Virus record (IMG/VR): IMGVR_UViG_3300012917_000001
Location: 1 to 43,514 of that record
DNA from: a virus
DNA length: 43,514 nt
Direction: 5' to 3' (one strand)
Positions 2,039 through 34,615 of the stretch are shown piece by piece (position 1 is the first letter of the stretch; each line of letters opens with the position of its first letter). The translations under genes were made by a program, and so were the position numbers. The notes under the pieces are model-generated. The model saw only the letters and a program-made list of their open reading frames with translations. It was not told the DNA's origin and did no database searches.

Positions 2039-4081
2039 TTAGCTCCAATTGCCTACGCTTTGAACAGTTGCGCTACCGACAGGGCGGAAGCGAGCGAATG
2101 AGTTAGCGCCGACTACGGCTGCGGCAGCGGTTGTTTGCGATACCTGCGGGATGACCGTGCCGGCCACGGTGACGCGGATGATACCGGTGATTTGCGCGTA
2201 GCCGACAGTGCCGGTAGCTGCGCTAGCAATCAGGGTGTTCGCTGCAGTGTCAAACGTCATCTGTGGCGTAGCCGCGGTTGCGAGCGCCGTCGGCTTATCT
2301 GCTATCGCCCACCAAGCCTGCGTGAAAGTCGCCGTACCGCCAAGGGCGAAACCAAAGGCTCCTGATGTGGCAGACAGCGCGGTAAGCGAGAAGAAGCAGT
2401 CAAACTCATATGTACCGATTGGTAATGTAACCGCGCCATTAGTAGTACCGTTTAGAATGGCCTGCGCCGCGGTTTGGCTGACAAGCGTTTTCGTGCCTGA
2501 CATTACCTCGACGTATTCAGTACCAATTACAGCTCGACTTGACGCTGCTGGCGTAAAATAGGCCGCCGTACCATCAAACTCTGTTGCGCCAGCCGCCGGC
2601 GTCGTTAAAGTTACGCCTGAATTTATAAGCAGCGGATATACCGTCGCGGTGCCGGCGGGGAGGGACAGCGCAGCACCAGTAGTCGGCGCAGCTGCGATGA
2701 TGTTTCCTGTAATGTTGATGAGAAGTGGGATGGCATTGCGCGTAATGTCGCGAAACTCGAACGATTTGTTCGTGCCGCCACCCGTGTCGATGCCGATATC
2801 CCACTGCTGCACTGTAGTTTTAGACGCCGTGAACCGCATGACAGAGCGTCCGTCCGCTAATCCCGAAGCGGCGCTTACCTCAACCCCTGGTTGAGCGCTG
2901 GCGTTGTTGACTAACAAGGCACGCCCACTAGTGGGGGCGGCAACTATTACGTTGCCGGCGGCATTCCAGCTTAGGCCAAGTGTCGCAGAGGGGCCAAGGG
3001 TGCCGGAGCCGTCGCCGAAAATCTGCAAGAAATTTAGTGTCTGAGCTTGGTTACCAATCGTGACTGCGTAGTCAGCGACAGTTGTTCCTGCCAGGACATG
3101 CAGCCCCTTAGATTGTCCGCTGGTGCCAGAGCCAAAGATGGTTGCTGTGTCAGAACCAGCGAAACCAGTGGCAGATAACGCTACGCCGCTAGTTGGCGCA
3201 TTGATGGTGACATTACCAGCGGTCCCAATAACCACACGCGAGGCGTTATTCGCCCACCAATGAAGCTCGCTGGCTGTGGTCGTGCCGAAGTTGACGGCGT
3301 TGGGCGCGCTCTGGGTGAACACTGCGGCGGTGTTCGTGCCGTCTTGCCACTGTACTATGTTGGCTCCGTTGATCGTGCCGGAAAAGATGTGCTTGCCGGT
3401 CCACGTCGGCGCAATCGTCACATCGAGTTGGATAGTGCAATCAGATCGAAGGGCGGTAGTAGCTACACCGGCGGCATTAACAGACAATGAGATTTTATTG
3501 GCTGGAATAGCGAATCCACTAAACGATCCCGGCAGAATCGAACTAGGGACATCTGCCGCTACTAGTGCTCTAAACGTAGGCTGGGCTGCGCCTCCGCTAG
3601 TCGGACCGGCGAATACTGTATTAACAGCCTGTGCCTTTAGCGTTAACGTCAGTGTGCCAGAAGTCGTAACTGGCGAACCAGTTACATTGAAGATTGAGCC
3701 TTCGGCTAGTCCTACCGAACTGACCGTTCCTGCTCCAGCTACGCCGGGAGAAGCCGATATAATCGACCATGTACCGTTTAGTTCGCAGAACAGGCCTAAG
3801 AAGGCCCCTACAGTGTTCAGAGTAACTGCAACTCCGTTGCCATTGCCTACAATGTGGTCAGTGGCTTGCGGCTGCACAACTATGACGTTGTTAGCAGCCT
3901 GCTCACAGAAATACATCGGACCTGCACCCGCTTTAGCTGCGGGCAGCGTAAATATTATGGTACCGACGACTACATGAGTCCAGACTTTGTACGCATCCAT
4001 GCCAGTCAACGTCGTATTGACGGATACCTGCTGAGGGCACAGGATCTGCTGCCGGAAATTAGGACTGATGCGTGTAGTCAT
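2039..4081 (-). CDS. Tail-fibre/spike-like protein, 680 aa
   Basis: Track ORF. A/G/T/S/V-rich, low-charge, beta-type composition. The segment VTGSPVTTSGTLTLTL...PTFRALVAADVP resembles motifs common in phage fibre proteins. Confidence 0.65.
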   Translation of the reverse strand: MTTRISPNFRQQILCPQQVSVNTTLTGMDAYKVWTHVVVGTIIFTLPAAKAGAGPMYFCEQAANNVIVVQPQATDHIVGNGNGVAVTLNTVGAFLGLFCELNGTWSIISASPGVAGAGTVSSVGLAEGSIFNVTGSPVTTSGTLTLTLKAQAVNTVFAGPTSGGAAQPTFRALVAADVPSSILPGSFSGFAIPANKISLSVNAAGVATTALRSDCTIQLDVTIAPTWTGKHIFSGTINGANIVQWQDGTNTAAVFTQSAPNAVNFGTTTASELHWWANNASRVVIGTAGNVTINAPTSGVALSATGFAGSDTATIFGSGTSGQSKGLHVLAGTTVADYAVTIGNQAQTLNFLQIFGDGSGTLGPSATLGLSWNAAGNVIVAAPTSGRALLVNNASAQPGVEVSAASGLADGRSVMRFTASKTTVQQWDIGIDTGGGTNKSFEFRDITRNAIPLLINITGNIIAAAPTTGAALSLPAGTATVYPLLINSGVTLTTPAAGATEFDGTAAYFTPAASSRAVIGTEYVEVMSGTKTLVSQTAAQAILNGTTNGAVTLPIGTYEFDCFFSLTALSATSGAFGFALGGTATFTQAWWAIADKPTALATAATPQMTFDTAANTLIASAATGTVGYAQITGIIRVTVAGTVIPQVSQTTAAAAVVGANSFARFRPVGSATVQSVGNWS

Positions 4082-4110
4082 AAATTAGGTAGGGGTGTTA
4101 CCCACACCCC
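4081..4110 (-). terminator. Hairpin plus weak U-tract immediately downstream of the major capsid gene (possible attenuator/terminator)
   Basis: Plus-strand GGGGTGT(4092-4098)-TACCC-ACACCCC(4104-4110). On the minus strand it is followed by TACCTAATTTA. It lies in the 46-nt gap between the capsid stop and the next start. Confidence 0.4.
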
Positions 4111-4127
4111 CAAAGGGCTAAACGCTA

Positions 4128-5165
4128 TTAGGCGTCAAGGATCGAGGGGACCACATATGCCACAGCGCTTCCGCCGCGGAGCATGCCAGTTCCATAGATC
4201 ATATCAGCAGTGAAGAGATCCGCGAGGAACTCCTGCTTGTACTGCTGCTGGGTACGAATACCCATCTGCTCGACGAGAACCGTCGCATCACGCTGTAGCA
4301 TCCAAGCCACAGATGCCACGCCGCCGTTGGCATTCAACACACCCGGCAGGTTGTTAGACACATACACTTCAACAGCGTACACGTTACCAACCAGCCCGTT
4401 ACGGATGGTATTGCCAGGACCAGCTTCGCCCGTGAAGGCTTGCTGGGTAAAGCGCGCAACTCCGAGGAGCAGCGCCTTCGTGACAGGCGGGAGAACCAGA
4501 TAGCGCGCAGCCATCGGAGCATCCACCTTGTCTAAGGCGAACACACCGCGACGAATGCCCAGATCCGTAAGATCCGTCTGGTTGCCGTTGGTCGCACTGT
4601 TCCACACAGTCGAACCGTCACCAATGAACGCACTCCAGGTGGAGCCGCTAGTGATATTGCCGGTCGCCGCATCTTCAATAGCCGTTCCGGCTACGCCAGC
4701 AACGGTAGTACCCGCAGCTAACTGAAAGAAAATGTCGCGATCAACGCGCTTTGCGATGGCGTATCCTGCATCGTCGGTATAGAACCGGCGAAGGCTAGGA
4801 AGCGCCTGAACGTCAACGATATCCTCAATCAAGCGCGAGTATTCCTTGTGCTTGCTGATGGAGATCGTGATGCCGCCGACTCCAGAGGAGTCTACGAACG
4901 GCTGGAGGGTCACAACAGACTGTGCGACCTTGTTGACTGCCACGCCACGAGCCGGAGTCGGGATGTGGATGGTGTCACCTTTCTTGCCTCGATGATTGAG
5001 CTTCCGAACCAGGTTGGCAAGAACCAGATTCGACTTATACTGCGCTACAACCTCATCGGACCACAAAGCGGGTACGAAGTTAGCGGCATGGACATCGTTC
5101 GGAGAACCGGGTCCACCCGTGAGGCTTGTTGCAATATCATTGCTCAGGACTAAAGAAGTTGCCAT
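4128..5165 (-). CDS. Major capsid protein (HK97-fold type), 345 aa
   Basis: Portal-scaffold-capsid synteny. The N-terminal FVPALWSDEVVAQYKSNLVLANLV...GDTIHIP pattern resembles podoviral major capsid proteins. The gene is followed by a hairpin. Confidence 0.75.
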   Translation of the reverse strand: MATSLVLSNDIATSLTGGPGSPNDVHAANFVPALWSDEVVAQYKSNLVLANLVRKLNHRGKKGDTIHIPTPARGVAVNKVAQSVVTLQPFVDSSGVGGITISISKHKEYSRLIEDIVDVQALPSLRRFYTDDAGYAIAKRVDRDIFFQLAAGTTVAGVAGTAIEDAATGNITSGSTWSAFIGDGSTVWNSATNGNQTDLTDLGIRRGVFALDKVDAPMAARYLVLPPVTKALLLGVARFTQQAFTGEAGPGNTIRNGLVGNVYAVEVYVSNNLPGVLNANGGVASVAWMLQRDATVLVEQMGIRTQQQYKQEFLADLFTADMIYGTGMLRGGSAVAYVVPSILDA

Positions 5166-5222
5166 GAGAATTTGCCTTTACAAGTTGTTGTTAGTAGTGT
5201 CGCTATGGCAACCCATTATCGC

Positions 5223-6095
5223 CTAATCGCCGACTACGCGCCCTTGGAGATAAGCCTTTGAGACTTCCTCTTTAAGCGTTTCATCAGATTCATAGGCCCG
5301 ACTTTGCATAAGCGCTCGCATTTGACCGCGAGTGTATGTTTTGCCGGGTTTTGCTCCACCAGTAGTCCCCTCGTTGCCAGTCCGGGACTGCTCTAGTGAC
5401 ACGCGAGACGCTGCCGATAGCCGAGTATTATCGTCAGTCTCCGCGTTGGCCCTTTCGGCCGCTTTAGTAGACTTGTACTCGCTCAGCAGTTCATCAGCCG
5501 CCTGCGTATTGCCCTGCGATGCCAAAGATGCGATACTACGCCGAAGCGGAGTTTCGCGAACCCATGCGGCGAACTCAGGAGTTTCCATAACCGTCGCAGC
5601 ATCGCCATGATGGTTATTGAACACTGAGCTACCCAGCATCTGTTCCATACGGGACAATTGCTGTTGCAAGGGAATGATGGCTCGATTGACGCGCTCCTCG
5701 ATAAAGGGATCTAGCGCCTCAGTAGGACGTTGCAGCAAATCAGCGGGATCAACCTTTGTGGGTTGCTTCACGCCGTTTGCGTTAAGGTCACGAGCACGTT
5801 TGTCAATAATCAGCTCTTGCACAGCACGCTGCGTCTGACCGAGATCGTTAGCCAGTCTGCCTGAATGCTGTTCGAGGTTGACATACATGTTCAATATGTC
5901 CTCGCGCGATTTACCGGCAAATCTGCGCGGTTCGGCGTGTACTTCCTCGTCAGTTTTCTGGACAGCGGGTTTAGCAGCTCTAGGCTGCGCCCCTGCATTA
6001 CGAAGCTCGTCTGCCAGCTTGGCAGTGTCCGTGTTTGAAATGTCAACGTCGCTTATGATACTTACAGCCATTTTGGTTCTCCTTACCACGTCCAA
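5223..6095 (-). CDS. Scaffolding-like protein, 290 aa
   Basis: Highly charged, A/E/R/Q-rich, helical-looking ORF between the portal and capsid genes, as in the T7-type order. Confidence 0.5.
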   Translation of the reverse strand: MDVVRRTKMAVSIISDVDISNTDTAKLADELRNAGAQPRAAKPAVQKTDEEVHAEPRRFAGKSREDILNMYVNLEQHSGRLANDLGQTQRAVQELIIDKRARDLNANGVKQPTKVDPADLLQRPTEALDPFIEERVNRAIIPLQQQLSRMEQMLGSSVFNNHHGDAATVMETPEFAAWVRETPLRRSIASLASQGNTQAADELLSEYKSTKAAERANAETDDNTRLSAASRVSLEQSRTGNEGTTGGAKPGKTYTRGQMRALMQSRAYESDETLKEEVSKAYLQGRVVGD

Positions 6096-14643: not shown

Positions 14644-14714
14644 TCTAGGGGTCTACCTATGGTATATCCGCGAGCAGGGTACAGCGCGAGCGCTATCCGC
14701 AAGCAGGAAAAGTG

Positions 14715-14942
14715 GGGGGCGCTAAGCCCCCATACAGAGGGACTATAGCTATAGTAAGACAATAGTCTTGTTCTTAGGAGGTAGATAGGAACCCTTTTAG
14801 GGTTCATATCATGGGAGGAGTCTTCGACGACCGCATATACACCCCTTCGGGGTATTGCAAGTGAGGACACTTGCTTTAGGATCGACTTTCGCAAATGCTT
14901 AAAGCGCATTTGCTACAGTCTTAGATGTGCACCAAATGCATC
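14715..14942. other. Cluster of seven unrelated stem-loops/palindromes (candidate structured RNA or ssDNA signal)
   Basis: 14715-31 GGGGGC/GCCCCC. 14742-55 ACTATAGCTATAGT. 14756-69 AAGAC-AATA-GTCTT. 14789-805 GAACCC-TTTTA-GGGTTC. 14841-53 ACCCC-TTC-GGGGT. 14857-74 GCAAGTG-AGGA-CACTTGC. 14891-913 GCAAATGC-7nt-GCATTTGC. 14924-42 is imperfect. Confidence 0.6.
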
Positions 14943-14973
14943 GAAAATTATGTTAAATTGAAGCAGATTTGAA

Positions 14974-14995
14974 AAACTTAATGTAAACTTAATGT
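14974..14995. repeat. Perfect tandem 2 x 11-nt repeat AAACTTAATGT in the AT-rich core
   Basis: 14974-84 equals 14985-95. A degenerate third copy, TTATGTTAAA, lies just upstream. Confidence 0.8.
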
Positions 14996-15332
14996 TCGCT
15001 ATGCGAAAAGTCTAAATCTGCCTAAGTCTATTTTGTGATACTACTCACACTATGAAGTTATCCATATTTAACATCCTAGAGCATTGACTATCGCAAGCCG
15101 GATATGGCCCATATAGTGTCCCTAATCTTGCCTCCGCCGCGCCTATTATTTTTACTTTTTGGCGTGGGTGCGGGTCGCTACGCTCGGAGCCTCCTTGGCT
15201 GCCATGAGGGGGTACCCCCATAGCTCTAAGCCTATGATATCCTTGCACATTGAGATGTTGACAGACAGTATGAACTGTGATCTGTTACGATTATGTTCAA
15301 TTGTGTTCATGCAATAACTGTGCCATTGATTG

Positions 15333-15415
15333 TACTTGACAAGTGTAAGATGATGTGGCAGGCACATGTGTAAGGTAGGCTTTACACTTGGGCTGTAAGA
15401 TATCCCGACACTTGC
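15333..15415. promoter_or_regulatory. Operator/iteron-like repeat array (CAAGTG/CACTTG inverted repeats; TGTAAG x3 at 25-bp spacing)
   Basis: ACTTG-A-CAAGT palindrome at 15334-44. CAAGTGTAA (15340-48) pairs with TTACACTTG (15382-90). ACACTTG recurs at 15408-14. TGTAAG occurs at 15344, 15369 and 15394. Confidence 0.55.
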
Positions 15416-15865
15416 CACTCTCAAAGCACTGTACATATCCACAGTATGTCAAGCTCTTTGTGGTCAAAGTGTGATGCACTTCTCAGTATTCAAAATAGAT
15501 TAGAACATTGTCAAATTGATCGCACTTCGGCCCAGCAATCGGCAATACTGTGCGCTGATGGTTGATTGGCTGAGACGGTAGAGCTGGATAAAGCCTACGC
15601 TCTCGGGCCCGGTAAGGAAGGCCGGAGACAGTGAGCGCACCGCGCGCCGCAGCGTTAGAGCTGGCATGAGGCGGGAGCACTAGAGCACTCGCGACAGTGT
15701 GTGCGGACGGCAATCCAATGAGATAGCCGCATATTATGGAAAATAGCGGAATCCAGAATGTACTTGGTTCTTACATAATGCCAGACTCGTGTAGTCCCTC
15801 GCTTATGTTCATTCCCGAGTACATTAAGGATTCTGTTCAATTCCCCCCAACTGATAAGGTGAGTT

Positions 15866-16084
15866 ATGACAAATGTATCCTACAAGCTGGATGGCGACAA
15901 GCTGGTTATCACGGTCAATCTGTCGGAGCGGCATGGTCCGAGTGCCTCCGGGAAGACACAGATTGTCGCGACTACCAGTGGCAACGCCAAGCTTGACGGC
16001 AAGTTCAGCGGCATTGCGTTCGGGCTGAACGTCTACACCAAGAGCACCGCACCGGCCACGGCCGTTGCCAAGCTCGCGGCGTAA
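15866..16084 (+). CDS. First early protein, 72 aa, beta-rich, unknown function
   Basis: Strong SD (AAGGTGAG, then 4 nt, then ATG) and a terminator-like hairpin 13 nt downstream. Confidence 0.75.
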   Translation: MTNVSYKLDGDKLVITVNLSERHGPSASGKTQIVATTSGNAKLDGKFSGIAFGLNVYTKSTAPATAVAKLAA

Positions 16085-16096
16085 TCAAGCCTGCGG

Positions 16097-16132
16097 CATT
16101 CGGAATTCAGTTCCGAGTGTCGCATTTTGATT
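16097..16132 (+). terminator. Putative intrinsic terminator after the first early gene
   Basis: CATTCGGAA-TTCAG-TTCCGAGTG stem (9 bp including one G-U pair), followed by TCGCATTTTGATT. Confidence 0.5.
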
Positions 16133-16157
16133 ATGTACGGCAAAATCGAAGGAAATT

Positions 16158-16328
16158 ATGGCAAATCGCGCTAATCGGCTTTGGAAGCCGCCAGCGGGCA
16201 CATCGGCCGCGCTGCGGCGAGGGTCGCGGTTTACACCGATCGCCGCGCTGAACGCGGCTCAACGCGATAGGCGCGATGCTGGCGCGGCATCCGCGATTCG
16301 CGGGAGCAGCGGCTGCCTTCTGATTTAA
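16158..16328 (+). CDS. Possible Arg/Ala-rich micro-protein, 56 aa (below the track cut-off)
   Basis: SD GAAGGAAATT precedes the ATG. Hand-translated as MANRANRLWKPPAGTSAALRRGSRF.... The composition is weakly protein-like. Confidence 0.3.
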   Translation: MANRANRLWKPPAGTSAALRRGSRFTPIAALNAAQRDRRDAGAASAIRGSSGCLLI

Positions 16329-16349
16329 GTTAAACCAAAGGGTAACGAT

Positions 16350-16535
16350 ATGACGATACACAGGCCATTGAGTACAGAACCATGGTCTCTACCGTTGCAG
16401 TTCCGTGACAGCACGGGAGAGTGGCATCTATTCGGGGCGACATGGTTCGCTCGCAATAGCGAGCATGTCGACATGCAGGGTGAACACGCCCTTATCCGTG
16501 GCGCGAATACGCATGGCGTATTGGAGTTTGTATGA
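16350..16535 (+). CDS. Early hypothetical protein, 61 aa
   Basis: Track ORF with an ATGA overlap to the next ORF. Confidence 0.5.
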   Translation: MTIHRPLSTEPWSLPLQFRDSTGEWHLFGATWFARNSEHVDMQGEHALIRGANTHGVLEFV

Positions 16536-16729
16536 CCATACACGCAAGCAAGTCCCGCTTTGCCAAGTGGGAAAGCATCGCACAGGCAGCAAGGCTAGCG
16601 TATGCGTATAACAACGCACTGTTACTGCGCGGCCATGGGCACAGCACAGCAGAGTGCGCGCAATGCCTCGCTAATGTGGGCGTTGTCGATAGTCCGACAG
16701 TCCATACAAGCTATGGCGGCACGGACTGA
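16532..16729 (+). CDS. Early hypothetical protein, 65 aa
   Basis: Track ORF, ATGA-coupled. Starts MTIH, like its upstream neighbour. Confidence 0.5.
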   Translation: MTIHASKSRFAKWESIAQAARLAYAYNNALLLRGHGHSTAECAQCLANVGVVDSPTVHTSYGGTD

Positions 16730-16747
16730 GTTGATGTGACATAACAG

Positions 16748-16785
16748 AGAGCATTGCACGGTCCCGGTACGGGCCGCAGTGCTCT
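16748..16785 (+). other. Long imperfect stem-loop between early sub-operons
   Basis: AGAGCATTGC...GCAGTGCTCT outer stem (10 bp with one G-U pair) enclosing GG(T)CCC/GGGCC. There is no U-tract. Confidence 0.45.
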
Positions 16786-16876
16786 CGATTATGACCAATC
16801 TACTACTCTCCCAGCTATTTGCCTTAATCATAGGTACTCTTATCCTATGGTGTATGTTTGCATAACAAGGTGACAT

Positions 16877-17047
16877 ATGTCGAAGCAAGCCACAAAGGAC
16901 AAGCGACGTGTACGCCGCGTGCGGTCGATACGTGCGCGACAGTCGAGACAGGCGATACGCACCAATCCAAGTCGAATCAATCGACAGCTTGGCTTGGGCT
17001 TCCAAGCAAGCCCTACGTTCACCTGTCGAAACGAGGATATATGCTGA
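16877..17047 (+). CDS. Highly basic micro-protein, 56 aa (ORF A of the coupled train)
   Basis: Strong SD AAGGTGA precedes the ATG. 12 R + 3 K in 56 aa. The stop lies within ATGCTGA, which contains the next start. Confidence 0.45.
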   Translation: MSKQATKDKRRVRRVRSIRARQSRQAIRTNPSRINRQLGLGFQASPTFTCRNEDIC

Positions 17048-17217
17048 GTGCAATAGCATGGCGGGCCAAGGCGCACCAATGGCTGCGCGTCGCACGACGC
17101 AAGACGGCAGACGAGAGGGCAGCAGCTATCAGAGCGGCTGCCTATTGCCGTTCCATGTCGATCAAGTCGCGGGCCATGCCGGCCAACGCCACACCGAGGA
17201 GGGCAGTAGCATGCTAG
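17041..17217 (+). CDS. Basic micro-protein, 58 aa (ORF B)
   Basis: Internal Met of track ORF 16858..17217, starting inside ATGCTGA. The stop lies inside ATGCTAG. Confidence 0.45.
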   Translation: MLSAIAWRAKAHQWLRVARRKTADERAAAIRAAAYCRSMSIKSRAMPANATPRRAVAC

Positions 17218-17381
17218 AGCCACAGACACTGCGAAACAATCGCGGGCATGATTGCGAATTGGACGGGCATGTTTACATGTCCGATCAAGTCTGCAACGGC
17301 GAGCCGGATAAAGGCTCAATATGTCACGAATGTAAGGCAGTACACAAGGGATGGACTGTCGAAGGCATGCCAATATGCTAA
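17211..17381 (+). CDS. Cys-containing micro-protein, 56 aa (ORF C; possibly Zn-binding, C..C...CxxC)
   Basis: MLEPQTLRNNRGHDCELDGHVYMSDQVCNGEPDKGSICHECKAVHKGW.... It starts in ATGCTAG and ends in ATGCTAA. Confidence 0.5.
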   Translation: MLEPQTLRNNRGHDCELDGHVYMSDQVCNGEPDKGSICHECKAVHKGWTVEGMPIC

Positions 17382-17650
17382 TCCCATACAAGCAATGGCT
17401 GCTAGCCAAGCAGCGCAGACGCATGCAAGGTTCATGGGGCGGAGACATACATCCGTCGAGCGGTACTGATTGTGGCGATCTGCATGATGTGGTACATTCA
17501 CCACAGTTCAAAGCTCGCTTTGCCGATCTGATAGGCATGGGCACACAAAATTCGGTGGTAACGCCACCAATCCGCTGCAGGGCGGTTTCCTGCGATACTA
17601 GTATCAGCGACGATAATGTTGGGCTAACGCCCAAAGGAGAGGACAAATGA
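17375..17650 (+). CDS. Hypothetical protein, 91 aa (ORF D)
   Basis: Starts in ATGCTAA and has an ATGA overlap with the next ORF. Confidence 0.5.
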   Translation: MLIPYKQWLLAKQRRRMQGSWGGDIHPSSGTDCGDLHDVVHSPQFKARFADLIGMGTQNSVVTPPIRCRAVSCDTSISDDNVGLTPKGEDK

Positions 17651-17901
17651 GTGGGATTCTGAAGTCAGTCAATGCGGCGGCCAAGAAGGACGTTCCGCAG
17701 ACCACGGGGCTCGTGTATCGTGGAGAGAAGGACGGAAGCACTATCGTGGGCTACTGGCTCAACGGTGTGTTCGTCGTGCTGTCACGGCACTCGACCCGTG
17801 GCGCAGCGTTGAACAAGATCAACGCTCTGAACGGCGGCACGGGCTGCGCGTTCGACTCGAAGGGCAACACATACGCGGTGTCTGCCGCGCGCGCTGCCTA
17901 A
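17647..17901 (+). CDS. Hypothetical protein, 84 aa (ORF E; last gene of the early unit)
   Basis: Track ORF with normal composition, followed by a strong terminator. Confidence 0.7.
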   Translation: MSGILKSVNAAAKKDVPQTTGLVYRGEKDGSTIVGYWLNGVFVVLSRHSTRGAALNKINALNGGTGCAFDSKGNTYAVSAARAA

Positions 17902-17903
17902 CA

Positions 17904-17950
17904 GGTTAGAGTAGCTAACCCTTGCCCCCCCGAAAGGGGGGGTAATTTTA
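17904..17950 (+). terminator. Tandem hairpins ending in a strong intrinsic terminator
   Basis: GGTTAG-AGTAG-CTAACC at 17904-20, then CCCCCCC-GAAA-GGGGGGG at 17925-42, followed by TAATTTTA. Confidence 0.8.
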
Positions 17951-17973
17951 GATACTCCATAGGAGAAAAAAGA

Positions 17974-19674
17974 ATGCCCCTGCGTTTCGATGCATCGGAG
18001 ATTACTAGCGCCGGCAGTAATTACATAACGAGCAGTACTTTACCTGGCAATGCTAGGTTTCATGTGCTTTTGGATAATCGTGGCACCGGGCGCTGTGTCA
18101 GATGTGATACACTTGCCCATGGTAGGTGTTGGGGTGGGGATGCATGGGTCATGTGCGCACGATGTGCGGTAGAATTCCACGGTGCCCCAGATTTACGCGA
18201 AGACATATCTGTGCCAGCAGGCACAGAAAACGGCGATGGCTTCAGTGAAGAGCCAGAAGTCTTAACTACCAAGCGAGATAAGTCATTTGATCCTGCGCAG
18301 TATCACACGTACAAGCACAATAGAGACCTGAATGGGCGCAGTGGCTGTTCCGGCTACAAATGTGAGACATGCCCCGCTCCGCACCGCACGCTTGTCAAGA
18401 ACAAGCAATTCTACATGGGCACAGGGGACAGGGGCTATCTATGCGAGGCATGCTTCCATAAGCTCAAGGCCAAATGGGAGATTACTCCGCGGTCACGTTG
18501 CCGTCTATGCGAACTAACCCACGTCACTGCAAAAATGACTGTGACACTGTATGAAGGTACAGTATGCGCTTACTGCGCGCACGAGTATTTTATCCTGACT
18601 CCGCATACAGATGGCGGCCTTGTCAATAGGTCCGGTACGGCATGGTGCAATACCGCGGCGCATGGGCGTGTCTATGCTTCACAGCGGTGGGCTACGGATC
18701 ATTGGTTCCGCGCTGGTGATATGTGGTACGAGACACAGGAAGCCGCGGAGGCCATTAACTACAGTACGGATACAACCTATCGCGACCATCGCGTTGCCAC
18801 CAATACTGGTAATACGATATTCCCGTATGGCACCAATATCATCAAAATGCTAGGCTTTCCTAGCGTTACTGCCAAAGATGCTCTATGCTTCGGCGTAGAG
18901 CTTGAAATGGTACCAAAGATGAACAACCATCACCAAAACGTAGTGGATACGTTGGGCGGCAAATGGGTGCCTGAGCGTCCGTACATTCTCTGTCGTGATG
19001 GTAGCTTAGGCGACGCTGGCGTAGAAATGATTACGCTGCCGTTTACGCTCGCCGCTCATAAATCAGACAGATACATGCCATGGAAAGCGACACTGGCTGG
19101 CCTGCGCCATGTTGCTATGTCCGGCAAGAATACCAAAGTATGCGGCATGCATGTGCATATCAATCGCCGTGCCTTATCGCAGCTACAAATGGGTAAGATG
19201 CTTGTAGTTGTCAATGCCCCTGAAATGCAGGAACTGATATGCTGCATAGCGCAGCGCAATGACGGTGGCTATGCTCACCGCAAGTTCGCCAAGATTAGTG
19301 ACGGTAAGTTCATTGAGGGAACGCACTTTGACGCACTGAACATTGCTACTAGCAAGGGCACATGCGAGTTACGCATATTCCGAGGAAACCTGCGATATGA
19401 GCGGGTAATGAAAAATCTGGAGTTTACCGAAGCACTCTGCGCGTACGCTGCGCAACAAAGCATGCAGTTGCTCACGAATCCTGCCTTACTGGTTGAGTGG
19501 ATACACTCTCATGCCGGGCATTATCCGTACTTGAGCCGGTTTCTAACGGAAACCTACAAGCCAAAGGCTGACTATGTAGCGCTCGCCAAGAAGGCCAGCG
19601 CATCGCATAGTAACGAGCAATGGCGATCGATTGCAATCGGAATTACAGTAGCCGAAACAGAAGGGGACATCTAA
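17974..19674 (+). CDS. Triple Zn-ribbon domain fused to an Amidoligase_2-like (carboxylate-amine ligase) domain, 566 aa
   Basis: N-terminal half: CVRCD..CARC, CETC..CEAC and CRLC..CAYC. C-terminal half: FGVELEM, DGSLGDAGVEMITLPF, CGMHVHINR and CELRIFRGN, recognised as amidoligase family motifs. Confidence 0.65.
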   Translation: MPLRFDASEITSAGSNYITSSTLPGNARFHVLLDNRGTGRCVRCDTLAHGRCWGGDAWVMCARCAVEFHGAPDLREDISVPAGTENGDGFSEEPEVLTTKRDKSFDPAQYHTYKHNRDLNGRSGCSGYKCETCPAPHRTLVKNKQFYMGTGDRGYLCEACFHKLKAKWEITPRSRCRLCELTHVTAKMTVTLYEGTVCAYCAHEYFILTPHTDGGLVNRSGTAWCNTAAHGRVYASQRWATDHWFRAGDMWYETQEAAEAINYSTDTTYRDHRVATNTGNTIFPYGTNIIKMLGFPSVTAKDALCFGVELEMVPKMNNHHQNVVDTLGGKWVPERPYILCRDGSLGDAGVEMITLPFTLAAHKSDRYMPWKATLAGLRHVAMSGKNTKVCGMHVHINRRALSQLQMGKMLVVVNAPEMQELICCIAQRNDGGYAHRKFAKISDGKFIEGTHFDALNIATSKGTCELRIFRGNLRYERVMKNLEFTEALCAYAAQQSMQLLTNPALLVEWIHSHAGHYPYLSRFLTETYKPKADYVALAKKASASHSNEQWRSIAIGITVAETEGDI

Positions 19675-20886
19675 ATGTGCTTGATCGCCTATATACCTGC
19701 CGGTAAGGCCGTTTCCCGCGCGGTATTTGACAAGGCGCATACTACCAATTCCGACGGGATTGGCATCATGTCCATCCAAGGCGTGCAAAAATTCTTTGGC
19801 AGCAAAGCTCTCAAGCGCGCCCGTAACTACGTGGATTCGCTGGTAGCTGCCAAGGTAGCGCATGCTATCCACTGGCGTTTCGCTACTCATGGCACCAAAC
19901 AACTGGCCTTGTGCCATCCATTCAAGCTTCCCAATCTTGACGTATATCTCATGCACAATGGCGTGATAGGAGCTACTTCGCAGGAAGCTACGGAAGATGC
20001 CAGCGATACGCTGTTGTACGTAAACAAGCTGACAGATGCTCCACAGTCGCATGAGGACTTAGAGTATTGGAGCAAAGTCTGTACGGACATTGGTCGCTAT
20101 AACAAAGCGTGTGTTATGTACCCGGACGGGCACTTTATCATTCTGAACAAGGAAGAAGGCACGGAAATAGACGGCATTTGGTACAGCAACCAGTACAGTC
20201 TGCCTTCTGCGTTGCGTACAAACAACAACTATTTCACACCATCTCGCTTACGTCAGCAGCAAGAATCCTCCCGTTGGCAGAGTGGCGGATATTGGGTGCC
20301 ATGGGATCCGACTACCAAAACCGGCGGCTACTATGAAACTAACCGCCATAGCCGCCCCGCCGATGCTTGGGATAAAGGCCCGTTTGGTAGCATGATTTAC
20401 TGGAGTGCTCAGTATGATTGTTACGGATATTGGGAACACGAAGCTTTCGTTAAACTGTCAGTGGGGAAGGCGCTGGTGCAGGACAATACTGTGCCGGCGT
20501 CTACTCCTGCACCTATCGCATTGCTACCTGCCCCCTCACAAGCTACTACACCTGTAGTACTTGACGCCGGGGAACGGTGTGCTAGATGCAATCGCCCCAA
20601 GAACCGTACAGCGTTTTATGTGCAGTGTTTCTGTGAGCCTGGCGAACTGGCTAGATGGTACACAGGGCAGGGCATTAAGCCGCCGTTGGCTAGCGGACCT
20701 ACGCTCGACACTGACGAGACTGCGCTAACGAGCGGCATGACTCACGAGGGCATGTGTGAGCATGGCGAGCTATCATGGGAGAATTGTAAAGAGTGCATCA
20801 ATAGACTTGAGGCAGCAGATACACAAGTGCGAGCCGATAAGCTTGCCAGCAAAATCATCGACTTATCCCGCGCTAGCGAGAAATAA
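19675..20886 (+). CDS. Class-II (Ntn) glutamine amidotransferase / thiol-peptidase-like protein with a Cys-rich C-terminal extension, 403 aa
   Basis: Starts MCLIAY (nucleophile Cys2), with HWRFATHG and MHNGVI motifs. The ATG abuts the amidoligase stop. The tail carries CARCN...CFC and CEHG...CKEC. Confidence 0.7.
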   Translation: MCLIAYIPAGKAVSRAVFDKAHTTNSDGIGIMSIQGVQKFFGSKALKRARNYVDSLVAAKVAHAIHWRFATHGTKQLALCHPFKLPNLDVYLMHNGVIGATSQEATEDASDTLLYVNKLTDAPQSHEDLEYWSKVCTDIGRYNKACVMYPDGHFIILNKEEGTEIDGIWYSNQYSLPSALRTNNNYFTPSRLRQQQESSRWQSGGYWVPWDPTTKTGGYYETNRHSRPADAWDKGPFGSMIYWSAQYDCYGYWEHEAFVKLSVGKALVQDNTVPASTPAPIALLPAPSQATTPVVLDAGERCARCNRPKNRTAFYVQCFCEPGELARWYTGQGIKPPLASGPTLDTDETALTSGMTHEGMCEHGELSWENCKECINRLEAADTQVRADKLASKIIDLSRASEK

Positions 20887-20895
20887 GGAGACATA

Positions 20896-20985
20896 ATGAC
20901 ACGAGTGAATATAATGACCGGGTACATAATGGCCGGAACAATCATCCTAGTACTGGCCTGCGGCAGTATAGCAGCAATGCTGTGA
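20896..20985 (+). CDS. Hydrophobic micro-peptide, 29 aa (below the track cut-off)
   Basis: SD TAAGGAG lies 6 nt before the ATG. Sequence MTRVNIMTGYIMAGTIILVLACGSIAAML. Its TGA overlaps the GTG start of the next gene (GTGA). Confidence 0.45.
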   Translation: MTRVNIMTGYIMAGTIILVLACGSIAAML

Positions 20986-21377
20986 AACTCGACGATACGC
21001 ATATAGCGGCGATACAGGCGCTATCTGTTTCGATCATCGCCCAATTACGACGAGACGGACGCTTTCCTGCTCGTTTAGACGAGGAGGATTATGCGGACAT
21101 ATCACAGGATGGGACACTCGCAGCACTCGGGCTATTCAATCGGTATGATCCTAATAGGGGCAGCCTGCGTGCTTTTATGGGTCCTGCTATGGCACGCGCT
21201 ATGCTGGCTTGTGCGTGGGCTCAGGCACAAGTGGGTATCACAGGCGACCATGGTGCCTTACAAGTCTGGAGTACAGACGACAACGAAGCAGAAGTCGAAC
21301 TACCTTTAGCGGATGACGTAGCCGCAGAGATAGAGGCTTTCGATCATGTGTGGCAATCGCATTATGTTCGCGATTGA
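20982..21377 (+). CDS. Sigma-70 region-2-only protein, 131 aa (gp55-like late sigma, or a decoy?)
   Basis: DISQDGTLAALGLFNRYDPNRGSLRAFMGPAMARAM parallels sigma-70 region 2.1-2.3 ([37 protein letters not shown]). No region 3 or 4 follows. Confidence 0.55.
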   Translation: MKLDDTHIAAIQALSVSIIAQLRRDGRFPARLDEEDYADISQDGTLAALGLFNRYDPNRGSLRAFMGPAMARAMLACAWAQAQVGITGDHGALQVWSTDDNEAEVELPLADDVAAEIEAFDHVWQSHYVRD

Positions 21378-21467
21378 ACATAATTTCGATAGCATTTGCC
21401 TAACATTACAAACTGCGAGAGCAAACATCTTTGACCCCATTTCCATGTCTCGCCAAGGTCATATCTG

Positions 21468-21484
21468 CAGTTAGTCACTAACTG
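21468..21484. repeat. Perfect 8-1-8 palindrome CAGTTAGT-C-ACTAACTG
   Basis: Read directly. It lies in the 244-nt gap after the sigma-like gene. Confidence 0.85.
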
Positions 21485-21507
21485 TATCTCCGGTAGTCGG
21501 CAGGCAT

Positions 21508-32815: not shown

Positions 32816-33034
32816 ATGCGCGAAATGGCACAAGTCTCTACCGGAGGGGCTATCTCCGCTACCTACCCTGATGACTACGAGGCAGAGATTCAGCGCAATC
32901 ACAAGGGCGAGCAATACGCCAAAGAGGTAGGAGAAGGTGAGGATAAGCAACTGGTGCCGACTAGGTTCGCTCTGCGCCTCAAGCTGATATCCGCCCGACA
33001 GGTCTACAAACGAGCAAAGAGGATGGTAGCATGA
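32816..33034 (+). CDS. Hypothetical protein, 72 aa
   Basis: Track ORF, ATGA-coupled downstream. Confidence 0.55.
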   Translation: MREMAQVSTGGAISATYPDDYEAEIQRNHKGEQYAKEVGEGEDKQLVPTRFALRLKLISARQVYKRAKRMVA

Positions 33035-33417
33035 ATGCTGTATCTGTACCCGCAAAGCCGATTATCCCGTTTCATTGGGGCCTGCCCTCTGACAGTTCTG
33101 CTCGTAAGCAGCATCCTATTGTCACTGGCTTCCTTGATTACTTCCCTGCTACTGCCGCTGGCGTTGCCTTTGTCAGTTGGGCTGGTAATCAGAAGCACAA
33201 CCACGGCCAAGCGCTCCATTGGGCTCGTGGAAAGAGCACCGATCAGGAAGATTGTATTGGTAGGCATACTGTGGAACGAGGCGATGTTGAGTATCTCGAA
33301 ACGGCTGATGCAATCTATGAAATCCCGCATTCAATGGCGAGAGCATGGAGAGCATGCGCCGCAGCACAGCTAGAGGCAGAGGCTAACGGAGCGCCAGTGG
33401 CGCGAGGAGCGAAGTAA
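33031..33417 (+). CDS. DUF5664-like protein (resembles the N-terminal domain of dATP/dGTP diphosphohydrolases), 128 aa
   Basis: The FPATAAGVAFVSWAGNQKH...HW..GKS...CIGRH...IPHSMARAWRACAAAQLE pattern resembles that family. The assignment is tentative. Confidence 0.4.
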   Translation: MNAVSVPAKPIIPFHWGLPSDSSARKQHPIVTGFLDYFPATAAGVAFVSWAGNQKHNHGQALHWARGKSTDQEDCIGRHTVERGDVEYLETADAIYEIPHSMARAWRACAAAQLEAEANGAPVARGAK

Positions 33418-33836
33418 TGGGAATCAAGGCATATGTAGCGGGACCGATGAGCGGCATTCCGCAGTACAACATTCCGGCTTTTGACGCTGCCTCATGGGCA
33501 CTCAGGGCTGCTGGCTGGGACATTGTTAGTCCGGCTGAACTCGATCATCCCGAAGTCCGCGCTGCCTGCATGGCTAGCCCGGATGGAGGTAAGATCGGGC
33601 AGACTAATGGAATAGGTGGAACATGGGGTGACTTCCTAGCCCGTGACGTGAAGATCGTTGCGGATCAGGTAGATGCTATCGTTCTACTTCCCGGCTGGGA
33701 AAATAGCAAAGGGGCCAATCTGGAGGCATTCGTCGGAACATTGTGTAAGAAGACGTTTTATCTGTACAACGCAGGCAAGCCTATTCCGACTAATATAGAA
33801 TGGGTACGTGATAATATGAAGTATTTTCAAGGATAA
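33417..33836 (+). CDS. DUF4406 / nucleoside 2-deoxyribosyltransferase-like protein, 139 aa
   Basis: AYVAGPMSGIPQYNIPAFDAA...LPGWENSKGANLEAFVG matches the typical YxAGPMxG...GWxxSxGAxxE pattern. Confidence 0.5.
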   Translation: MGIKAYVAGPMSGIPQYNIPAFDAASWALRAAGWDIVSPAELDHPEVRAACMASPDGGKIGQTNGIGGTWGDFLARDVKIVADQVDAIVLLPGWENSKGANLEAFVGTLCKKTFYLYNAGKPIPTNIEWVRDNMKYFQG

Positions 33837-33838
33837 TA

Positions 33839-34615
33839 ATGAAACCTGTAATAGCGACTGTAGACATCGAAACCTCGCCCTACCATGTGTATACATGGGG
33901 GCTCTGGCAGCAGAACATTGGGTTAGATCAGATCACCGATGATCGCACGATACTGTCTGTAGGATACAAGCGACTAGGCGGCGAGTTTGAGTACAAGGAT
34001 ACCAGTGGGAAAGGGCCGAGTCGGGTTCGCGAGGACGGGGCGCTCTGCGCGTGGCTTGCTGATAAACTCAACGAAACGGACATCGTAGTGGCTCAGAACG
34101 GCGCGGACTTTGACGTTCGTGTGATTAACTCCCGCCTGATTGCCAACCGTATCAAGCCTTATTCCCCTATTCGTGTGGTGGATACCAAGAAAGTTGCTAA
34201 GAAGGTAGCGTCCTTTGCCAGCAATAGGTTGGAGTGGCTTGACCGCGTAGTGAACGGCGGAGAAGGTAAGGACAAGCATAAGCAGTTTCTGGGGCAGAAT
34301 CTTTGGACAGCCTGTCTGATGGATGTGCCCAGTGCTTGGAAGGTCATGAAGACGTACAACAAAAAGGATGTACTCAAGACGGAGAAGCTGTACCTCAACC
34401 TACTTCCGTGGATTGAGCACCATCCGAATGTGTCTGTCTACACTGGCAAGAAGTTCTCATGCCCGAATTGCGGTAGCACGAAGGTAGAAAAGCGCGGTGT
34501 ACACTATACGCAAGCATCTGCATATCAGCAGTATCATTGCACGAACTGCGGCAAGTGGCCGAGGGGCAAGACAATGCTTAGCGTATTAGACGAACGTAAA
34601 GGACGATTGACATGA
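33839..34615 (+). CDS. DEDD-type 3'-5' exonuclease (RNase-H-like) with a C-terminal Zn ribbon, 258 aa
   Basis: VDIETSP, VAQNGADFDVRVI, then CPNCGS...CTNCGKW. Confidence 0.6.
   Translation: MKPVIATVDIETSPYHVYTWGLWQQNIGLDQITDDRTILSVGYKRLGGEFEYKDTSGKGPSRVREDGALCAWLADKLNETDIVVAQNGADFDVRVINSRLIANRIKPYSPIRVVDTKKVAKKVASFASNRLEWLDRVVNGGEGKDKHKQFLGQNLWTACLMDVPSAWKVMKTYNKKDVLKTEKLYLNLLPWIEHHPNVSVYTGKKFSCPNCGSTKVEKRGVHYTQASAYQQYHCTNCGKWPRGKTMLSVLDERKGRLT

Follow-up and report, generated by a model that had tools for sequence, protein, structure and literature searches.

A phage amidoligase gene coupled to a class-II amidotransferase-like gene, with putative zinc-binding modules on both predicted proteins

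We analysed a stretch of viral DNA of 43,514 nucleotides (nt) from IMG/VR (record IMGVR_UViG_3300012917_000001, positions 1 to 43,514; "the window" denotes this stretch at its full length) and focused on two abutting genes on its plus strand (Table 1). The first encodes a protein of 566 amino acids (aa) that we predict to be an ATP-dependent carboxylate-amine ligase of the Amidoligase_2 family, with its motifs intact, and the second a 403-aa protein predicted to be a cysteine hydrolase with the N-terminal nucleophile (Ntn) fold of class-II glutamine amidotransferases (GAT-II). The stop codon of the ligase gene abuts the start codon of the GAT-II gene, the sequence at 19672-19680 reading ATC TAA immediately followed by ATG TGC. 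A 29-aa open reading frame (ORF) comes next, preceded by TAAGGAGACATA-ATG with the Shine-Dalgarno sequence AGGAG 6 nt upstream; it ends in ATG CTG TGA, within which lies the GTG start of a 131-aa ORF, giving a GTGA overlap. The ORFs, the protein motifs and each of these junctions had been described in an initial annotation made from the letters alone, and all are present.

Table 1. Positions of the genes, predicted domains and other features at the locus, numbered from the first letter of the window
Feature	Position	Strand	Basis or remark
Ligase gene, 566 aa, zinc-ribbon-fused Amidoligase_2 (predicted)	17974..19674	+	ORF list, homologues, Pfam, AlphaFold2 (AF2), Foldseek
Predicted ligase zinc site 1: C41, C44, C61, C64	18094..18165	+	At least 90% conserved among 18 full-length homologues
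Predicted ligase zinc site 2: C125, C130, C157, C160	18346..18453	+	Invariant in 18; high predicted local distance difference test score (pLDDT)
Predicted ligase zinc site 3: C176, C179, C198, C201	18499..18576	+	Invariant in 18; at least 90% in 102
Predicted ligase catalytic domain, residues ~281-529, glutamine synthetase (GS)-type metal and ATP motifs	18814..19560	+	Invariant residues, fold match
GAT-II-like gene, 403 aa, starting MCLIAY, with putative zinc-binding tail	19675..20886	+	ORF, homologues, profile, Foldseek
Predicted Ntn glutaminase-fold domain, residues 1-180: Cys2, Arg68, Thr71, Asn95-Gly96, Asp111	19675..20214	+	Invariant in 78 homologues
Predicted GAT-II tail metal site 1: C302, C305, C318, C320	20578..20634	+	Invariant in 21 homologues
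Predicted GAT-II tail metal site 2: C361, H363, C371, C374	20755..20796	+	Invariant in 21 homologues
29-aa single-pass hydrophobic ORF	20896..20985	+	Shine-Dalgarno sequence, relatives
131-aa acidic sigma-70 region 2-like protein, GTG start	20982..21377	+	Pfam, homologues
Intrinsic-terminator-like GC hairpin and T-run	17922..17951	+	23 nt upstream of the ligase start

In the gene annotation that came with the metagenome, the ligase is represented by P0002, which covers no more than its last 317 aa. As 17 full-length homologues (492-595 aa, 45-72% identical) align with the longer reading from Met1-Pro2 on, the 566-aa ORF is the correct reading of the gene; the segment 17974-18723, encoding the N-terminal 249 aa with all three putative zinc sites, is unannotated in the source. 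Relatives were collected by scanning IMG/VR with a degenerate pattern from the ligase alignment, which yielded at least 300 confirmed encoding stretches. The 87 loci compared below are the best 80 of these, six other loci and the window. Ligase alignments comprised 18 full-length homologues, including the N-terminal part, and a wider set of 102; those of GAT-II comprised 21 full-length sequences, a profile set of 50, and 78 nonidentical partners from phage contigs.

The assignment of the ligase's C-terminal half to the Amidoligase_2 carboxylate-amine ligases, made in the initial annotation, agrees with significant similarity in both Pfam and Foldseek. The Pfam match is marginal and covers residues 416-488 only (PF12224, 23.0 bits against a gathering cutoff of 22, E 8e-5); precomputed annotations list the family on most homologues, and the protein matches phrog_2443, "amidoligase" (3e-5). 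With an AF2 model built on the 102 homologues (mean pLDDT 92.2), Foldseek against the PDB returned only GS-fold carboxylate-amine ligases, led by YbdK (1r8g, E 1.2e-6, probability 1.0) and including glutamine synthetases, gamma-glutamylmethylamide synthetase (GmaS), GshF and the depupylase Dop (E ~1e-4). A fold search was needed to see this relationship, as a PDB profile search with the ligase alignment gave only a chance match to a PHD finger. Among viral models (BFVD), the matches were dozens of phage "amidoligase" proteins, including those of Pseudomonas phage tf, Cellulophaga phi14:2 and crAss-like phages, and one protein annotated as "LIM domain containing". The window's protein contains the motifs FGVELEM, DGSLGDAGVEMITLPF, CGMHVHINR and ELRIFRGN, and the residues G307/E309/L310/E311, D342/G349/E351, G391/H393/H395 and E465/R467/F469 are invariant in the 18 full-length and the 102 wider homologues. 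By analogy with the GS and GCS2 fold, E309, E311, D342, E351, H393, H395, E465 and R467 would be the GS-type residues for metal, ATP and acyl-phosphate binding.

For the second protein, the class-II amidotransferase fold with a cysteine nucleophile proposed in the initial annotation was recovered by profile and structure. A profile of 50 homologues matched the glutaminase domain of GFAT/GlmS in the PDB (E 8e-7) and also PurF and 1te5; the AF2 model, with a pLDDT of ~97 over the fold domain, matched GlmS (2.8e-6), PurF, EgtC (4zfj, E 3e-3) and AsnB. We disregarded as noise the weak Foldseek matches of the same model to RimK and D-Ala-D-Ala ligase, whose probability did not exceed 0.47. None of the Pfam families GATase_2, 4, 6 and 7 matched above threshold, GATase_6 scoring 17.6 bits against a cutoff of 27, and NCBIfam gave only subthreshold GlmS matches (~17 bits) for this protein and none for the other three encoded at the locus; at E <= 0.001, GATase_4 matches 33 and GATase_6 22 of the 78 homologues. 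The fold and profile evidence compensates for the subthreshold Pfam score. Met1 and Cys2 are invariant in the sets of 21, 50 and 78, as are N25, G30, H66, R68, T71, G73, H81, P82, H94, N95, G96, D111 and S171 across the 78 partners; the motifs HWRFATHG and MHNG are invariant in the 21 full-length sequences. In the hidden Markov model (HMM) alignment, HWRFATHG, HP, MHNG and SDT fall onto HTRWATHG, HP, HNG and DT of GFAT/GlmS, and R68, N95-G96 and D111 are residues that we take to be Arg73, Asn98-Gly99 and Asp123 of Escherichia coli GlmS. In GlmS these bind the alpha-carboxylate and alpha-amino groups of glutamine and form the oxyanion hole. Since its pocket keeps every residue with which GlmS and PurF hold this moiety, the protein appears built to hold glutamine or a gamma-glutamyl-X compound, with Cys1 attacking the gamma-amide.

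The two genes belong together. The ligase core is found in all 87 loci and a GAT-II ORF beginning Met-Cys lies beside it in 84; in the other three the sequence ends at the ligase. The adjacency is thus essentially obligate, and co-localisation, one of three tests that the initial annotation had set for its proposal, holds, as do the other two, significant similarity of the ligase and conservation of Cys2. The GAT-II gene mostly begins between -9 and +60 nt downstream of the ligase, in a few cases within ~3 kb; in five loci the order is reversed, with GAT-II immediately ahead of the ligase and overlapping it by 4 nt. In none of the 84 loci, these five included, did we see GAT-II fused to the ligase. 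MW202733.1 likewise carries the pair, as do the OM43 phages MEP401 and MEP402. Three IMG/VR contigs of 94-103 kb each carry two separate ligase and GAT-II pairs, so that the module is duplicated within these genomes; some of their ligases have cysteine-rich N-termini with eight CxxC motifs.

Two further loci differ in their surroundings. MW202828.1 encodes a GAT-II domain joined in one protein with a gamma-glutamylamine cyclotransferase (GGACT) domain (PF06094, E 7.5e-18). The 405-aa fusion protein, in the order GAT-II, GGACT, a segment rich in Gly, Tyr and Ser, and a C-terminal CxxC...CxxC, follows a divergent 574-aa ligase (both within 2218-5218 of that record) that is missed by Pfam and by our ligase HMM, yet has IGFEVEK, ERDGSCGYEAVTHILP, CGGHITIG and LEFRLP. 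In Clostridioides phage AR1086-1, an Amidoligase_2 gene (within 3087-5896) lacks a GAT-II neighbour and is flanked by genes for a DUF1653 protein and a nucleotidyltransferase of the RlaP family, which is associated with RNA repair; this different context may indicate another class of substrate.

What the pair does can be approached from the chemistry of its relatives. Characterised GS-fold ligases, namely GS, GCS, PuuA, GmaS and PafA, activate the gamma-carboxylate of glutamate; a stand-alone GAT-II domain can hydrolyse gamma-glutamyl amides instead of glutamine, as in EgtC; and gamma-glutamyl-amines are what GGACT enzymes cleave. That the module recurs together with GGACT, in one case as a fusion, points to the gamma-glutamyl-amine bond as a shared intermediate. 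We tentatively favour, at somewhat less than even chances, a scheme in which the ligase forms a gamma-glutamyl-amine amide on an amine and the GAT-II protein processes that amide. Early to mid infection, the ligase would activate the gamma-carboxylate of glutamate as an acyl-phosphate and join the gamma-glutamyl group to an acceptor amine; conceivable acceptors are metabolites resembling polyamines, precursors of peptides or of the cell wall, and macromolecules, at a lysine or the N-terminus. Cys1 of the GAT-II protein would then attack the same gamma-glutamyl amide and release glutamate, making it a trimming or second-step enzyme in the logic of EgtA/EgtC, GmaS/N-methylglutamate synthase and PafA/Dop.

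Several points weigh against this scheme. The Foldseek TM-scores of the ligase are low (0.26-0.44), which makes inference of the substrate from the fold weak. A ligase and a hydrolase acting on the same bond and encoded by coupled genes would run a futile cycle unless there were another step or substrate, and Pfam scans of the window, covering 47 ORFs of which ~30 have no Pfam hit, revealed no third enzyme to relieve it. The GGACT fusion occurs in only 1 of the 78 GAT-II partners, and GGACT genes accompany only the extended modules described below, not the minimal one of the window. The literature searched reports no substrate for the phage pair, as the initial annotation had stated. Lastly, the invariant pocket is equally expected for a true glutaminase, and tight 1:1 coupling of the genes is typical of amidotransferase complexes.

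These last two points lead to the principal alternative, a heteromeric glutamine-dependent amidotransferase in which ammonia released by the GAT-II protein would reach a carboxylate activated by the ligase and give a carboxamide; the target could be the D-iso-Glu or meso-diaminopimelate carboxylate of a peptidoglycan precursor, a Glu or Asp of a protein, or a metabolite. We regard this as possible, if on the unlikely side. It accounts for the full glutamine-binding and oxyanion constellation being invariant, the nearest structural matches are the true glutaminase domains of GlmS and PurF, ammonia is the natural nucleophile of GS-fold enzymes, and the futile cycle is avoided. The obligate adjacency and frequent stop/start overlap suggest 1:1 stoichiometry, a coupling for which an amidotransferase accounts better than amide processing does, and the acidic GAT-II tail (isoelectric point, pI, ~5) and the mildly basic ligase (pI ~8.7) would fit a complex. 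Known class-II amidotransferases, however, are fused to their synthase, and the lack of any such fusion in 84 loci is at odds with the idea; the GGACT fusion and neighbourhood would have no role in an ammonia relay; and if the ligase activates glutamate like its characterised relatives, the net reaction would be null.

Both proteins carry cysteine clusters outside their catalytic domains. The initial annotation counted three zinc units on the ligase, and three conserved four-cysteine clusters are indeed found; its spacing for the second did not hold, site 2 being of the form Cx4C...CxxC, with C133 of "CETC" unconserved. Site 1 is absent from the wider family of 102 homologues. An HMM of residues 1-170 matches only the window and loci L003-L007 among the 87, and phmmer with residues 1-275 against 1.84 billion representatives found the protein's own subfamily only; a match to a eukaryotic C2H2 zinc-finger protein was judged spurious, and the array turned up in no other enzyme context in this search. 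Since site 3 is conserved to at least 90% in the 102 homologues, a zinc ribbon before the catalytic domain is a family trait and not the unexplained fusion that it had first seemed; in the majority of the 87 loci, two or more CxxC motifs precede the ligase core. In these alignments, sites 1 and 2 are specific to a small clade, and site 3 is the family-wide ribbon preceding the core.

The tail of the GAT-II protein (residues ~181-403) is modelled at lower confidence. Its HMM likewise matches only the window and L003-L007 among the 87 loci, and a homologue search with the tail alone gave no matches, though full-length homologues exist. The cysteine-rich tail had been taken for a peculiarity of this protein; such tails recur in other phages, and it is the two-site form, together with the extra ligase modules, that is confined to ~20 metagenomic relatives. 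The ligase extensions and cysteine-rich tails co-occur in 7 of 7 loci of the clade, which is not independent evidence of a link, as the clade is a single lineage. Because the zinc modules are not strongly basic, they give no sign of nucleic-acid binding; most likely, the clade-specific ones are docking surfaces, for each other or for the acceptor. Both enzymes also end in clade-conserved C-terminal tails (19663-19671 in the ligase, 20872-20883 in GAT-II): the ligase in ...E-G-D-[ILVY], with E563, G564 and D565 invariant in 18 sequences, and GAT-II in the consensus ...YLPxASxK of 21 sequences, the window's own reading ...LSRASEK.

A more far-reaching version of the docking idea, which we consider unlikely, is that the clade-specific zinc modules would dock the pair onto a machine of the host such as RNA polymerase, the ribosome or the replisome, where the ligase would put a gamma-glutamyl or short glutamyl tag on a lysine or N-terminus and the GAT-II protein would edit or erase the mark. 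If true, this would be a phage-encoded ATP-dependent "glutamylation" system of host takeover, and the co-transcribed sigma-like factor would redirect RNA polymerase; we know of no phage for which such a takeover has been demonstrated.

The two small genes downstream are less firmly attached to the pair. L004 alone has a close counterpart of the 29-aa ORF (39 aa, 90% identical besides an in-frame indel of 10 codons), and L003, L005 and L006 have a different small hydrophobic ORF, MF+xLDxxP..., at its position. It is probably a real small membrane protein, but nothing marks it as a substrate or tag and its membership of the module is doubtful: with two unrelated sequence types at the site, the linkage read into it earlier is positional only. 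In the 131-aa protein, Pfam finds sigma-70 region 2 alone and below threshold (Sigma70_r2, 22.7 bits against a cutoff of 24); its homologues, 45-85% identical among close relatives, have Sigma70_r2 in the precomputed annotations, without the mark of a weak match only in L005. The protein is highly acidic (pI ~4.5, net charge -12) and may be a minimal phage sigma or RNA polymerase-binding factor. A sigma-like gene follows GAT-II in 9 of the 87 loci, all of close lineages, which speaks for synteny rather than the four-gene system first suggested. We regard the 29-aa and sigma-like genes as neighbours that lineage synteny keeps in one middle-gene operon, and not as components.

Upstream, the hairpin in Table 1 (CCCCCCC-GAAA-GGGGGGG and TAATTTT) marks the start of the ligase transcription unit. 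A hairpin and T-run are kept at this place in L003-L006 with different stem sequences; therefore the operon boundary is conserved. The motif GGCTTAATTCTCAAGCC lies just upstream in L003, L005 and L006, and hairpin and motif together may form a conserved early/middle transcription boundary or an attenuator. Between the hairpin and the region upstream lies a gene for a basic 84-aa protein (17647-17901, plus strand, pI ~9.9) without a family match, 69-90% identical in relatives and thus more conserved than the ligase or GAT-II; its C-terminus is variable, usually ending Ala-Ala. The preceding ~3 kb (14644-17646), between the divergent late (minus-strand) and early (plus-strand) blocks, contain small ORFs only and a second strong terminator-like hairpin (16092-16124). 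Relatives carry arrays of 40-140-aa ORFs in the matching region, which is probably an early-promoter or small-early-gene region.

The small proteins bear on the idea of tagging by analogy with PafA and Dop, raised in the initial annotation, in which host proteins would receive the 29-aa peptide or the 84-aa protein from the ligase as a tag like the protein Pup, and the GAT-II protein would be the deconjugase. Dop is indeed among the Foldseek matches of the ligase, every close relative has small ORFs on either side of the pair, and the 84-aa protein is strongly conserved. The 29-aa peptide, on the other hand, is a hydrophobic transmembrane segment ending AAML, unconserved at its C-terminus and replaced by an unrelated sequence in relatives; the 84-aa protein ends in Ala-Ala and not in Gly-Gly-Gln/Glu, and a terminator separates its gene from the ligase. 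Neither ORF accompanies the pair outside the immediate clade, and no Pup, Mpa, proteasome or AAA-unfoldase family was found in the Pfam scans of the window. On these grounds we rejected both small proteins as Pup-like tags or as substrates of the kind found with ribosomally synthesized and post-translationally modified peptides. With no Pup-like tag protein present, the resemblance to PafA/Dop is an analogy only, and tagging of this kind is hardly credible.

The window as a whole looks like a near-complete podophage genome. It has genes for a portal of SU10/phiEco32 type, a terminase, a holin, primase, helicase, family-A DNA polymerase and a 5'-3' exonuclease; no phage RNA polymerase gene was found in it. 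The DNA polymerase shares no more than 40% identity with its counterparts in VpV262-type Vibrio phages. Megablast with 17600-21500 as the query found no match among 50,697 phage records; close DNA relatives exist only in metagenomes. PADLOC gave no match for the proteins of the locus. Farther along the plus strand lies a nucleotide-related gene cluster (33031-34615), composed of a gene with a weak match to the N-terminal domain of dATP/dGTP diphosphohydrolase (dGTP_diPhyd_N, 33031-33417, E 3e-4), a DUF4406 gene (33417-33836, E 3e-17), whose product is presumably nucleoside deoxyribosyltransferase-like, and a gene for an RNase-H-fold protein with a C-terminal zinc ribbon (33839-34615).

This genomic setting brings in a further possibility, that the pair takes part in hypermodification of phage DNA or nucleotides, for instance by adding a glutamyl or amino-alkyl group to a modified base or processing it there. 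Lee et al. 2021 (PMC8989533) report contigs in which amidoligase and glutaminotransferase genes accompany 5-HMUDK and aGPT-Pplase, genes of thymidine-hypermodification clusters; in the window, phiEco32 and UFV-P2 the pair always lies directly upstream of primase, helicase and DNA polymerase genes; and the window has the DUF4406 and dGTP_diPhyd_N-like genes. We nevertheless find such a role distinctly unlikely, given that the Pfam scans of the 47 ORFs, ~30 of them without any hit, turned up no dUMP hydroxymethylase/ThyA-like protein, TET/JBP, 5-hmdU kinase or aGPT-Pplase, that the zinc modules are not basic, and that the replication-gene neighbourhood may reflect middle-gene timing.

The same gene set has been read as auxiliary metabolic genes in Phage-ZRK32 (PMC10945688) and the OM43 phages (PMC10580990), boosting the nitrogen or glutamine metabolism of the host, and both enzymes are related to enzymes of central nitrogen metabolism. 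The claim in these two papers is not backed by enzyme assays, though, and at 9-16% identity to housekeeping GS and GlmS in structural alignments, with phage-specific zinc modules on both proteins and with genes carried by strictly lytic-type podophages beside those for replication, a plain metabolic role is very unlikely here.

The pair is a recognised phage module, present in phiEco32, the LUZ24-like phages, Marvin and the OM43 phages, and its novelty had been overstated in the initial annotation. Iyer, Abhiman, Burroughs and Aravind are said to have described the phage module of Amidoligase_2 and GAT-II computationally in 2009 (in Mol Biosyst 5:1636). Papers on LUZ24-like phages, phage tf and the OM43 phages, among others, list an amidoligase and a glutamine amidotransferase, citing Iyer et al. 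2009 for the prediction. In the OM43 case the pair, gp05-gp06 of MEP401 and MEP402, is found in podophages of Methylophilales (~43 kb) and more than 30 related marine viral genomes, and is listed by the authors without an assigned function (PMC10580990). An experimental hint, which we count for the scheme favoured above, comes from a Pseudomonas phage subjected to directed evolution: both evolved lines acquired independent missense changes in the amidoligase and the GAT-II gene (PMC11450229). Shared by model phages and abundant marine phages, the pair is one of the more widespread phage modules without a reported substrate, and learning the ligated target would settle whether phages direct gamma-glutamyl or amide chemistry at host proteins, the cell wall, polyamines or nucleic acids. 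As a metagenomic sequence, the window is no easier a handle on this than the cultured phages that carry the module; what it contributes are the minimal two-gene form, the near-obligate adjacency and the invariant glutamine/gamma-glutamyl pocket, to which the GAT-II-GGACT fusion adds a pointer to gamma-glutamyl-amine chemistry.

Among characterised systems, the GAT-II domain shares with GlmS, PurF and AsnB the Cys1 nucleophile, the Arg/Thr/His, Asn-Gly and Asp pocket and the alpha-beta-beta-alpha Ntn fold, but it has no fused synthase domain and instead an unrelated tail of 220 aa with two putative metal sites. PafA and Dop resemble the pair in combining a GS-fold ligase with an amidase, both acting on the gamma-carboxyl or gamma-carboxamide of glutamate or glutamine; there the two enzymes are GS-fold paralogues, whereas the hydrolase of the window is an Ntn GAT-II protein. 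In ergothioneine synthesis, EgtA, a GCS2-type gamma-glutamylcysteine ligase, and EgtC provide the same pairing as here, a GS/GCS2-fold ligase and a stand-alone Cys1 GAT-II enzyme that cleaves a gamma-glutamyl amide, although the other Egt enzymes are absent from the window, identity is ~14% and EgtA belongs to a different GS-fold family. Closer in arrangement is MEP401, where a ligase (546 aa), GAT-II (289 aa), small ORFs, primase, helicase and DNA polymerase mirror the gene order of the window; the MEP401 and MEP402 proteins are only 24-25% identical to those of the window, differ in the N-terminal region, and have a short GAT-II tail with three cysteines that our tail HMM does not match.

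The phiEco32 and LUZ24-type modules are the most informative comparison. In phiEco32 and UFV-P2, a LUZ24-like phage, the genes for primase/helicase and DNA polymerase are immediately preceded by a block that comprises GAT-II with one or two GS-fold ligases, a RimK-like ATP-grasp protein, a GGACT/AIG2 cyclotransferase and two small ORFs. Relative to that block, the window lacks the RimK-like ATP-grasp protein, a second carboxylate-amine ligase (COOH-NH2, PF14395) and the GGACT cyclotransferase, none of which appeared in the Pfam scans of its 47 ORFs, and it has two extra putative zinc modules on the ligase and the two-site tail on GAT-II. In both, the two catalytic domains are encoded by adjacent genes on the same strand with small ORFs after GAT-II, the genes downstream are those for primase/helicase and family-A DNA polymerase, and a zinc ribbon precedes the ligase core, as in most members. 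The window carries the minimal two-gene form of the phiEco32/LUZ24 module.

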